A stretch of 64,000 bases of DNA from a virus, in the IMG/VR virus record IMGVR_UViG_3300025645_000053, positions 1-64,000 of that record; one strand, written 5' to 3'. Every line of letters starts with the position of its first letter. Positions within the stretch are counted from its first letter, which is position 1. Position numbers and translations under genes: made by a program. Positions 51,401 to 52,651 of this stretch are shown here, piece after piece. A model generated the notes under the pieces. It did no database searches. It saw only the letters and a program-made list of their open reading frames with translations, and was not told the DNA's origin.

Positions 51401-52651
51401 GCATACCGTGAAGCTCGTGGAGAAATTATTCCTAGCTTCTCTAAGGTATTAATGCAATCAGGTGGTGAAGTTAAATCTATATATGATACCATTAATAATA
51501 AATACAAGAAAGAAATTGCGGCCGCAATGGTACAAGAACGTGCAATGGAGATACTTGTTGAAGGGAAGATTGAAAACGAAAACTCGCCAATTAAACCATT
51601 AGTATCAGTAACGCCCGAGCGTTTAACAGAAATATTAAAGTTTAACCATATTGACATCCCTGGCGATAAAGTTAAAGTTTCGGATGTACGTACTTATGAT
51701 GAGCTGATTACGTACACAACTGATGCTGTTAAGGGAGTTTCGTTAAATGACATGAGTGTTGAAGAAGTTGAAATGGATTCGGCACAACTTGAGCGTTTAA
51801 CTGCGGATATGCACAGAGCAAAACGTAATGGCGTACATGGTAAAGCTGGTATGAAAATACGTCGAGTATTTAAAGCCGAATTGCCATTGCAAGTACGAAG
51901 TCAAGAAGCATGGATAGATGATGATCCTACTCAAGAAATAATTAATCCAATGTACCATGGCACAGGCTCAATTGCTGCTTCGATTATATTACGAAATGGC
52001 TTTGCTGTTATCAAATCAGGCGATGCTTCAGTTGTTGGACGTATGCTAGGCGACGGTGTATATGGAGCAATTCATATTGACAAATCCCAACAGTATATCG
52101 GCGATGCCGGCTATAGTAGAAATGCGGGTATGATCGGTTACATATTTGCGATGAACGCTGCATTGGGCAAGAGGGGTAAAGATTATGATGTAGCTGGAGT
52201 TGAAGGTGGTAATGCTAAGTTTAGCGTTGCCTCTCCTGAATGGTGTGTATTTACACCTAACGCACAATTTAAAATTGAAACGGTATATGAAGTCGAGATT
52301 GCTGATGATGCTGCTATGCAAGAAATACTTAAAAATAATAAAGAAGAAGTTAATGAAGCTGTATCGTTTTCAAACTTTATTACCGAAGCTAAAACGACTT
52401 CAAATAAACAATTGAGATTCACGTTCGTAAATGGGCGTGTACCAATTGGTAAAAGTAAGGTTGTTGAGTTCGAAGATTTCAAAGGAAATAAAAACGTTTA
52501 TATCGAAAAGTCAGCTTACGGTCCAGTTGTCGTAATGGATAACACTAAGAATGAAGGTTCTTGGATGTACAAATCACCTACGGATTTCCAATCAAATGAT
52601 CCTAATAAATATAAACAATATCTATCGTTACTTAAAAAGAAGTTGAAATAA
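48455..52651 (+). CDS. Large (about 1400 aa) ADP-ribosyltransferase with a C-terminal H-Y-E PARP-fold domain
   Basis: MYHGT, GRMLGDGVYGA, DKSQQY, PEWCVF align with PARP catalytic motifs; N-terminus KTYKELHE. Confidence 0.85.
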   Translation: MRNKTYKELHENLLYTSADKADFLDDDNAIINAFMINFVGVALAFNLSLNQAKVLRYIKADKKVRLANITDENNDMSLIIKIMSDKKMFKNNTVTNEITRFLAKLKTGSIDNIDEGILLAWINQVKDSNMIGMQKSLKKALATIVDDGDLTLGLKHIRWSAMRNKKSSGEFLDLTRGMRFKQVNKTITPATATATNQPQTDSPDLSTVQAPVVSQAPTAPEILSFEDAMAAKDNKALLKSAAEKPVTWFRDFTNWVMFGPDKKGAPKAVNMTQMRDTLSTLGDAFDLIPEATITKWMDAMVSKAISKKVGLSLYNEWFIHLINIIGGTKSVDKLDLAGAIKRAGIYDIMGTQSLSELPSFNALRKLESLVGLRYKPSDYIRENLPSLKTVGIGAEKTKNLIRVSLTLAYRETDVVLDMISDAKENPFINAASGLISFNVENEKEYDTDWFRSVAKFDVIVKDDGTSSAVDRLINAFTTSQGTGRFGLEQKLQAVISSYSNEEFKAAVTSLNNISAAYDYEKFYTVLKAFYYNVLQRHPLASSPDFMYMIFKMHELMVLKDYNRAKHDLISQMVLSQYSSLRQIGNKIIRDEYADPKLMLTIFADTNTYGNKLPKVVQGARSLAEAWKGFFNNNKEISILLFKEYVNHNNVPIKNMTQWADKLDVSSFANNNFKSGINISNIDAKSAQDLLAIGLWKNLLGTTGGGSFESKFPELVGQASDFILKGVINTIMSFNSVKSDKQFFLKAERRLNAVLQLSSYRGLIVPSQIKRLSGYDQSLYTEAHDLLSKTSLASLTEVNADVDDAKATLRSSTIDLKPIFITQQQYIFNDSDYKSYLKDLLQGAHPKINVAAQILDARPVGSGTLSEFPTFDIVKDDPELQNLVVNSFIANGKYKGSGIKLGEIRDLDKITKLNLDANQSAALELQVYSIIEKAVRNQETFYMASIAEHFAADDASPMFKDEKVIASAFSDMIARLDGMPNTVAYREARGEIIPSFSKVLMQSGGEVKSIYDTINNKYKKEIAAAMVQERAMEILVEGKIENENSPIKPLVSVTPERLTEILKFNHIDIPGDKVKVSDVRTYDELITYTTDAVKGVSLNDMSVEEVEMDSAQLERLTADMHRAKRNGVHGKAGMKIRRVFKAELPLQVRSQEAWIDDDPTQEIINPMYHGTGSIAASIILRNGFAVIKSGDASVVGRMLGDGVYGAIHIDKSQQYIGDAGYSRNAGMIGYIFAMNAALGKRGKDYDVAGVEGGNAKFSVASPEWCVFTPNAQFKIETVYEVEIADDAAMQEILKNNKEEVNEAVSFSNFITEAKTTSNKQLRFTFVNGRVPIGKSKVVEFEDFKGNKNVYIEKSAYGPVVVMDNTKNEGSWMYKSPTDFQSNDPNKYKQYLSLLKKKLK

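Follow-up and report, generated by a model that had tools for sequence, protein, structure and literature searches.

A giant protein of a T4-like myovirus carries a PARP-type ADP-ribosyltransferase domain and conserved candidate sites for a head protease

Can a bacteriophage carry an ADP-ribosyltransferase (ART) of the PARP type, and would such an enzyme be packed into the phage head, cut there and injected into the host? This question is raised by a giant gene at 48455–52651 of a 64,000-nucleotide stretch of viral DNA (positions 1 to 64,000 of IMG/VR record IMGVR_UViG_3300025645_000053; the whole of this stretch is called the window below). The account that we consider probable, though by no wide measure, is that the gene encodes a late-made effector of an uncultured marine T4-like myovirus, which would be packed, cut by a gp21-type protease and injected, and would ADP-ribosylate host targets. 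Residues are numbered throughout from the GTG at 48437, which gives 1404 amino acids (aa), although the ATG at 48455 (1398 aa) is the likelier start. The layout of the gene is as follows.

48455–52651, plus strand: giant open reading frame (ORF), 1398 aa from the ATG or 1404 aa from the upstream GTG at 48437; stop codon at 52649–52651
48455–48487, plus strand: N-terminal leader MRNKTYKELHE, ending in L-H-E; predicted gp21-type cleavage after Glu17, giving the new N-terminus NLLY...
48488–49006, plus strand: conserved N-terminal module of ~170 aa, with tblastn matches to giant proteins of Aeromonas phages
49004–51478, plus strand: linker rich in Thr, Pro, Ala and Gln (residues ~190–235), then a middle part to residue ~1014 that is poorly conserved by mean column identity
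51479–51724, plus strand: conserved segment before the ART domain (residues 1015–1096); the phrog_18612 match begins at residue 1015, and the segment contains LTE at Glu1065
51725–52321, plus strand: PARP-clade ART domain (residues ~1097–1295), from AlphaFold2 (AF2), Foldseek and VIA-align
52349–52387, plus strand: linker with two predicted protease sites, V-N-E1307 / AVSFSNFIT-E1317 / AK
52388–52648, plus strand: C-terminal tail of 87 aa (residues 1318–1404), a small beta domain with two helices (AF2 predicted local distance difference test, pLDDT, 87)

The four motifs in which an earlier note on this DNA had recognised a PARP-type signature all lie in one ORF and where that note had placed them, namely YHGT (residues 1173–1176, nt 51953–51964), GRMLGDGVYGA (residues 1201–1211, nt 52037–52069), KSQQY (residues 1216–1220, nt 52082–52096), and PEWCVF (residues 1267–1272, nt 52235–52252). 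The key residues are His1174 (51956–51958)-Gly1175, Tyr1209 (52061–52063), Lys1216-Ser1217, Tyr1220, and Glu1268 (52238–52240). The catalytic columns (His, Tyr, Lys, second Tyr, and Glu) were invariant in 34 aligned sequences, and SPEW was invariant in 79. The alignment shows the predicted NAD+ pocket and catalytic residues (His-Gly, Tyr, Lys-Ser-x-x-Tyr, and Glu) to be intact and invariant; the equivalence of Glu1268 is based on its position, at the start of the strand after a loop, and not on a residue-level structural alignment.

The AF2 model, which covers residues 1095–1404 and was built from 34 relatives, had a mean pLDDT of 86. A Foldseek search with it gave a best E of 4.5e-10, all the matches listed being PARP catalytic domains. 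By VIA-align fold comparison against 48,161 representative chains, the model matched PARP1 with a Z of 16.2 (183 residues aligned, root-mean-square deviation 4.6), in which model residues 3–198 lay on PARP1 789–1011, that is, on the whole ART subdomain. The Z values for other PARPs were 15.8 for PARP2, 15.6 for tankyrase 2, 14.7 for PARP10, and 14.2 for PARP3, and those for the pseudo-PARPs TASOR and RCD1 were 13.1 and 11.4, after which they dropped to 5.6 for diphtheria toxin and exotoxin A and to 4.9 or less for pertussis, heat-labile, and other toxins of the Arg-Ser-Glu (R-S-E) class. The earlier note had made its case depend on the predicted structure being an ART fold; the model is one, with PARP-specific elaboration and a Z of 16.2 to PARP1. 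Thus, the model shows the C-terminal domain to have a PARP-type ADP-ribosyltransferase fold of the His-Tyr-Glu (H-Y-E) clade, not of the R-S-E clade of T4 Alt and Mod, and the contrast that had been drawn with those two enzymes holds both in the residues (H-Y-E) and in the fold (Z ≤4.9 for R-S-E toxin structures vs 16 for PARPs). The domain, which had been taken to start at 51860, is real, but its fold begins at about residue 1097 (nt 51725), ~135 nt further upstream. A search of the contig, which is a ~43% fragment, for the Alt-type ART (PF03496) gave no match, but its positive control was equally silent, so that this negative carries no weight.

What counts against the assignment is that Pfam PARP (PF00644) matched the whole protein with only 22 bits (E 1.3e-4), under its gathering cut-off of 26.7, and that a six-frame search reached 25 bits (E 4.3e-7), also under the cut-off. 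Homologues with 37–44% identity to the giant protein exceed it (29.3, 41, and 28.2 bits). A phmmer search against PDB sequences gave an E of ~1, yet it set HG...GxGxY...KSxxY opposite the same PARP1 residues, and a full-length family profile had no match in PDB sequences at E 0.01 or better.

To place the protein among its relatives, tblastn was run with its C-terminal 300 aa and found matches in 39 phage records, including Stenotrophomonas Menderavirus, pf16, RSP15, Xanthomonas BUDD/X1, Aeromonas Aeh1/phiAS5/PX29, Ochrobactrum OC, and two Lysinibacillus phages. None of C48C1, Melnitz, and HTVC008M, the cultured phages closest to that of the window by capsid protein, was among these matches, and megablast of the giant gene against phage records gave no match. 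A metagenome protein collection held at least 70 relatives of 900–1480 aa, the closest over the C-terminal region being P0002 (97% identity) and P0003 (63% identity), and phrog_18612 matched with an E of 2.5e-112. As judged by sequence, the giant protein is a new member of a family of 1000–1500-aa phage proteins that has already been recognised in this way. In 2005 the Aeh1 protein and a single other protein made up the known viral ARTs of the PARP-like kind, and the large unrelated N-terminal part of the Aeh1 protein was noted (Otto et al, 2005; PMC1266365). In the available part of a later survey, the PARP-type family is among the most frequent viral ARTs, some of which may make polymers, phage ARTs in general are argued to be packaged in the head, and MuF fusions are tied to the Alt/VIP2 and N4 families (Iyer et al, 2022; PMC9503650). 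The novelty first claimed for the domain was therefore overstated, since publications of 2005 and 2022 had dealt with the family and both GenBank and UniProt carry annotations of it. The Ps15 genome paper also mentions the giant protein, without data. The available part of the text of Iyer et al (2022) (PMC9503650) does not mention the leader, linker sites, or tail of the giant protein, and the conserved pattern of protease-type sites, the internal leader copy, the family-specific tail, and the split-gene form described below look to be unreported.

Several features of the relatives were also observed. Two metagenomic relatives carry a WGR domain after the first linker (P0045, residues 226–286; P0050, residues 231–295), at 28 and 38 bits, above the Pfam cut-off; WGR couples PARP1–3 to nucleic-acid breaks. 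In cultured relatives, the surroundings of the giant gene include genes for removing ADP-ribose or supplying NAD+ (L002:4143-5024, L004:8843-9328, and L001:12209-14791): an ADP-ribosylglycohydrolase (ARH) gene immediately upstream of it in Aeh1, a Macro domain protein ~1.9 kb downstream in pf16, and, 3–4 kb downstream in Marzo, an NMNAT-Nudix gene and a gene annotated as nicotinate ribosyltransferase.

Conservation is uneven along the protein. Across 47 full-length relatives, column identity was 0.5–0.8 at both ends and ~0.2 in the middle, being high over residues ~1–150, low over ~200–1000, and high again from ~1000 to the end. The variable body of ~800 aa had no family match in Pfam, PHROG, or ESM Atlas, and for the N-terminal 1084 residues neither Pfam nor PHROG gave any family apart from phrog_18612, while ESM Atlas gave no usable match; the view that the N-terminal ~1100 aa belong to no assigned family thus held good, with phrog_18612 as the sole addition. 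The single strongly hydrophobic segment of the protein, AIINAFMINFVGVALAFNL, lies in the N-terminal module at residues 35–53 (nt 48539–48595; Kyte-Doolittle mean 1.9 over 19 residues), and relatives are likewise hydrophobic at this position; such a segment may insert into a membrane as the helix of an ejection protein, or it may simply be a helix buried in the fold. In the structural comparison, a weak ART-like match (Z 4.4) was also seen to a chain of the cyanophage A4 pre-ejectosome structure (9k3a_B), which hints that ART-like domains occur in solved ejection-protein assemblies. A profile of the N-terminal module (A3), too weakly conserved for a scan of the protein collection, matched one place per giant gene in five phage records, and the sole extra copy was a stand-alone paralogue of 265 aa (MGKELLVENSLY...) encoded immediately after the giant PARP gene on a phage contig of 134 kb (L033:6967-7764). 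A word search for longer relatives of the module returned PARP-family members only.

Because pseudo-PARPs such as TASOR (Z 13.1) and RCD1 (Z 11.4) exist and fit the model well, the domain might be catalytically dead and have no role in the head beyond structure or scaffolding; the distant similarity of the N-terminal part of the Aeh1 protein to coat proteins (Otto et al, 2005; PMC1266365) speaks for this as well. The NAD+ pocket residues and the catalytic Glu are, however, invariant across relatives that share ~35% identity, which argues for an active enzyme, and we regard a pseudo-PARP as very improbable.

If the enzyme is active, the nearest structures being those of the polymer-forming PARP1, PARP2, and tankyrase, it might be a true poly(ADP-ribose) polymerase that builds chains on host or phage targets, a possibility that we find doubtful, though one that deserves real weight. 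The H-Y-E triad is complete, and the equivalents of PARP1 Met890 and Lys903 are conserved in the family, but the triad is necessary and not sufficient for polymer: human PARP3 and PARP4 carry it and are yet mono-transferases. The earlier note had pointed to the Lys of KSxxY as equivalent to the one required for chain elongation in PARP1; it is indeed the conserved Lys903 equivalent, but this Lys is not diagnostic of elongation. The fold itself separates the two activities poorly, the mono-transferase PARP10 being nearly as close as PARP1 (Z 14.7 vs 16.2) and PARP3 following at 14.2. Two residues before the catalytic Glu, moreover, the family has an invariant Ser (Ser-Pro-Glu), whereas PARP1 has Tyr986 (Tyr986-Asn-Glu), which contributes to the acceptor site. 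The WGR domain of the two relatives, as in PARP1–3, would suit a polymerase, but Pfam detected neither WGR nor a helical regulatory domain in the window protein; zinc fingers, BRCT, and a MuF domain were not detected in it either. Similarly, the ADP-ribosylglycohydrolase gene that adjoins the Aeh1 homologue and the Macro gene near that of pf16 would fit a polymer that has to be removed, but no PARG-type gene was seen, and a Macro domain search of the contig, itself a ~43% fragment, found none. The same possibility is raised in the available part of Iyer et al (2022) (PMC9503650). We consider mono- or short oligo-ADP-ribosylation of protein more likely than the synthesis of long polymers.

The acceptor could also be nucleic acid, modified at DNA or RNA ends or on bases, and the phage genome might thereby be marked or shielded, or the RNA of the host put out of action. 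Modification of DNA or RNA ends is reported for several PARPs and other H-Y-E ARTs in the available part of one source (PMC9458441). The protein would travel with DNA, an RNA-ligase-like protein is encoded among the leader-bearing neighbours, and the WGR found in two relatives binds nucleic-acid breaks in PARP1–3. On the other hand, Pfam found no nucleic-acid-binding domain in the window protein, the structures of DarT and KptA/Tpt1 matched the model poorly (Z 4.3–4.7), and the evidence does not discriminate between substrates. We consider a nucleic-acid target improbable and keep to protein as the likelier acceptor.

We then considered whether the protein is processed. Among the 47 full-length relatives, only four sites pair a conserved Glu with a conserved hydrophobic residue two positions before it.

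Glu17, LHE/NLLY, at the end of the leader: Glu 98% and P3 hydrophobic residue 98% conserved
Glu1065, LTE/ILKF (RLTE/ILKFNH), nt 51629–51631, ~30 residues before the ART domain: Glu 77% and P3 hydrophobic residue 100% conserved
Glu1307, VNE/AVSF, in the linker: 98% conserved
Glu1317, ITE/AKTT, in the linker: 94% conserved

The N-terminal site, written [LIVMF]xE-N-[ST]-[LF]-[YW], occurred within 5–21 residues of the Met in 60 of 71 relatives. The second CTS-like motif (CTS, capsid-targeting sequence) that had been reported after the domain, VSFSNFITE, is exactly at nt 52361–52387 (residues 1309–1317), followed by 87 residues and the stop, and it proved to be conserved and better defined than had been said: Glu1307 and Glu1317 bracket a decapeptide, AVSFSNFITE, with sites of the type cut by T4 gp21. 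This linker, at model residues 212–226, is the sole stretch of low confidence (pLDDT <50) between two well-modelled domains. In relatives the decapeptide reads MSFKSFITE, KSFKDYLNE, or ISFKEFIKE, which is the same word as the N-terminal leaders of other family members (MKSFKELRE and MKSFKSFIPE) and also matches the N-termini of the neighbours in the window (MKSFKRYLTE, MISFKKFIAE, MKTFKETLVE, and MKSFSQFINE). T4 gp21 removes small N-terminal peptides from IPI–III and Alt, and a capsid-targeting sequence of ~10 aa directs such proteins to the core (PMC9958956, PMC3012670). The motif expression had eight internal matches in 21,240 positions of the contig, so that its occurrence in a single protein is not significant; it gains significance because it is conserved at the same place in the relatives.

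The tail that follows the linker appears to be a separable module. No fold match was found in PDB (Foldseek best E 0.59; VIA-align wide search, best Z 2.8); in BFVD, at E ≤0.001, it matched the tails of three giant phage proteins (that of pf16 and two of 1373 and 1202 aa), with that of phiAS5 at E 8e-3, and by HMMER it occurred almost exclusively at the C-terminus of giant proteins. The family also has a split form (L008:1954-5318), in which a PARP protein of 1014 aa, with a different N-terminus that lacks the ENSLY leader, is followed by a translationally coupled tail gene. In this IMG/VR contig (3300005548_000033; L008/L039), the PARP protein stops shortly after the ART domain, and the tail ORF of 107 aa, whose ATG overlaps the stop codon (ATGA), begins MNPLIIKPFGQYLKEE. 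P0084, which is 61% identical to the L008 locus, starts at the same place, which argues against an assembly error in L008. The split variant indicates that the tail can function as its own polypeptide with its own leader, and this is what would be expected if the fused forms are cut. Among the short HMMER matches, P0084 and P0095 (L008) were the only stand-alone tails; P0072, P0074, P0077, P0082, and P0092 begin or end inside a giant gene and were read as fragments, and P0073 corresponds to an inner part of the fused L014 protein. The idea that the tail is a basic DNA-binding internal protein was likewise rejected: its net charge is +9 in the window but the family median is −6, whereas the internal proteins of T4 are basic. 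Of the proposal that the protein is a protease-released polyprotein or carries a fused small internal protein, a conserved motif before a separable module of ~87 aa, backed by the split-gene variant, has been borne out, whereas the cleavage itself is predicted.

Should Glu1065 be cut, a compact ART of ~242 residues would come away from the giant body. This leads to a bolder possibility, a zymogen-style polyprotein, in which the protease would cut the linker sites and perhaps Glu1065, freeing the PARP from both the body and a partner of 87 aa that silences it in the producing cell, so that it would be armed only in the virion and build chains in the next host. We hold this to be a slim prospect; if it were true, the protein would be a protease-controlled injected PARP and the first case of poly(ADP-ribosyl)ation by a phage.

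For the packaged effector that we favour, a protease and neighbouring genes have to be taken into account.

696–1337, plus strand: prohead protease of the T4 gp21 family (Pfam Peptidase_S77, E 1.3e-40), adjoining T4-type scaffold and Gp23 capsid genes
47845–47852, plus strand: T4-type late-promoter-like TATAAATA, 38 nt upstream of the small basic ORF at 47890–48465
52653–53474, plus strand: cytidylyltransferase-like protein with the leader MKSFSQFINE, starting one base after the stop codon of the giant gene

The nearest isolates by capsid protein, at 57–61% identity, are phage C48C1, the Methylophilales Melnitz phages, Pelagibacter phage HTVC008M, and cyanomyoviruses, which together with the T4-type head module indicates a marine T4-like myovirus from the neighbourhood of Kyanoviridae. 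The Peptidase_S77 protein at 696–1337 is proposed as the enzyme that cuts the giant protein. The start of the giant ORF overlaps the end of the preceding small basic ORF (47890–48465) by 11 nt, and other copies of TATAAATA precede the gp21 and scaffold genes. The order of giant gene and then cytidylyltransferase was shared only with L009, the closest metagenomic relative (63% identity). Leader-like N-termini in the contig numbered 5 against 0.54 expected (~nine-fold, P 2.5e-4). The same leaders are common in C48C1, Melnitz, and P-TIM68 and are also present in S-CREM2, whose cytidylyltransferase homologue begins MKNFSSFLTE. This S-CREM2 protein has been detected in purified virions by mass spectrometry, and cytidylyltransferases are often found in cyanophage virions according to the same authors (PMC10665884). 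Packaging of the giant protein is plausible because its leader sites are conserved, a gp21-type protease is encoded in the window, and a leader-bearing cytidylyltransferase is present in S-CREM2 virions; its cleavage is, on the same predictive footing, plausible too. Together with its leader-bearing neighbours, the giant protein suggests that phages of the Kyanoviridae type pack a set of enzymes into the head.

At least seven ORFs with an amphipathic leader were seen, in the window at 46034–53474 and 407–613 and in G000 at 69504–70130, five of them consecutive; the leaders are MKSFKRYLTE, MISFKKFIAE, MKTFKETLVE, MRNKTYKELHE, MKSFSQFINE, MKSFKQFKEE, and MKTYKDLKKLFTE, and the proteins include one that is RNA-ligase-like (Pfam 31 bits) and one that is cytidylyltransferase-like. 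Elsewhere in the window, the large subunit of ribonucleotide reductase is interrupted (56475–59987). In a Lysinibacillus (Herelleviridae) phage (L007:2898-5516), a protein of 872 aa with a distant C-terminal PARP-like domain and no tail is encoded directly upstream of the portal, procapsid protease, and major capsid genes, a position that speaks for packaging.

The course of events that we propose is as follows. The giant protein would be built into the prohead core, where the gp21-type protease would remove the short N-terminal leader after Leu-His-Glu and would cut the disordered linker after Glu1307 and Glu1317. The tail of 87 aa would thereby be freed from the enzyme-bearing body, and the leader-like peptide of 10 residues between the two sites would be discarded. 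The cleaved pieces would then enter the host with the DNA, and there the enzyme would use NAD+ to ADP-ribosylate host targets, much like T4 Alt, whose ART is of an unrelated clade.

A number of observations weigh against this proposal. The source record, of 77.9 kb, is a genome fragment, ~43% complete by CheckV. In the window, TATAAATA occurred 14 times against 9.8 ± 3.3 expected, which is not above chance, and the giant protein holds 14 [LI]xE sites, so that the motif alone is weak evidence. Many relatives have a leader of five residues (MELYE/NSLY), too short for a T4-type targeting sequence of 10 residues, and the targeting role may fall to the N-terminal module instead of the leader. In Marzo the giant gene lies among replication genes and not among head genes, in Aeh1 it is likewise outside a head-gene context, and the neighbours in both phages are without a leader. 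In the published literature we found no enzyme assay, virion proteome, or cleavage map for any family member, and no virion proteomics of one was found in the papers on pf16, Ps15, Moby, Ochrobactrum OC, and marine-phage proteomes.

The protein may accordingly act, without being packaged, in the cytoplasm of the infected cell, the motifs serving some other purpose and the tail staying attached as a regulatory or target-binding domain. The positions of the Marzo and Aeh1 genes, among replication or unassigned genes with leaderless neighbours, fit this alternative, as does the confident AF2 model of the tail in the same chain; the leader, moreover, is very common in this phage group, enzymes included, and could reflect some other shared property. 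Yet three of the only four conserved hydrophobic-x-Glu sites stand exactly at the leader and the linker, the split-gene variant presents the tail as able to work as a separate polypeptide, a leader-bearing cytidylyltransferase homologue is found in S-CREM2 virions, and a protease of the gp21 family is encoded. We therefore consider a purely cytoplasmic role rather unlikely and retain the packaged effector. The giant family is spread over T4-like phages of marine bacteria, Aeromonas, Stenotrophomonas, Pseudomonas, and Ralstonia; its conserved candidate cleavage sites and split-gene variant predict which fragments virions should hold, and cultured relatives exist.

Among known systems, the closest are the giant proteins of other phages, namely Aeh1 ORF131c (1211 aa), the Menderavirus 'ADP-ribosyltransferase' (~1200 aa), pf16 gp92, and RSP15 ORF127, which have a homologous N-terminal module, ART, linker motif, and tail. 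Their C-terminal 300 aa are 37–42% identical to those of the window protein, with the same invariant catalytic residues, whereas the middle ~800 aa cannot be aligned. The clade of the window differs from them in having a longer, T4-CTS-like N-terminal leader, and its gene in lying within a run of leader-bearing enzyme genes with the cytidylyltransferase directly after it.

Eukaryotic PARP1, PARP2, and the tankyrases resemble the domain in fold (Z 15–16 over ~180 residues), in the H-Y-E triad, in the Gly after the His, in the Ser and second Tyr of the nicotinamide pocket, and in the Met890 and Lys903 equivalents. The domain differs from them in its sequence (16–20% identity), in having Ser for PARP1 Tyr986, in falling below the Pfam cut-off when taken alone, and in being fused to a phage-specific N-terminal body and a C-terminal tail. 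The polyvalent and MuF effectors packaged in heads, as treated in the available part of the survey by Iyer, Burroughs, Anantharaman, and Aravind (2022), are likewise large virion-delivered myovirus proteins with a C-terminal ART; in the window protein, by contrast, no MuF domain and only one recognisable effector domain were found.

The internal proteins IPI–IPIII of T4 have an amphipathic leader of ~10 residues that ends hydrophobic-x-Glu and is cut by gp21, the capsid-targeting sequence of IPIII being a 10-residue leader of a similar kind, and the window protein has such a leader both at its N-terminus and before its tail. The tail was not found to be homologous to any T4 internal protein, and its charge is not conserved (+9 in the window, family median −6); we know of no internal leader flanked by two sites in T4.

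T4 Alt, finally, loses an N-terminal peptide to gp21, consists of a long body with the ART at its C-terminus, and is delivered along with the DNA (PMC9958956), and the same plan is proposed for the window protein, whose packaging is predicted. The label Alt-like is thus apt for the layout (leader, long body, and C-terminal ART), by analogy; no homology or sequence similarity to Alt was found. Neither a second, internal leader nor a released tail is known for Alt, and, in the available part of Iyer et al (2022) (PMC9503650), it belongs to the R-S-E (Alt/VIP2) clade, unlike the H-Y-E domain of the window. As T4 Alt is the textbook injected ADP-ribosyltransferase, the giant family would be its counterpart from the other great clade of ARTs, that of the eukaryotic PARPs.

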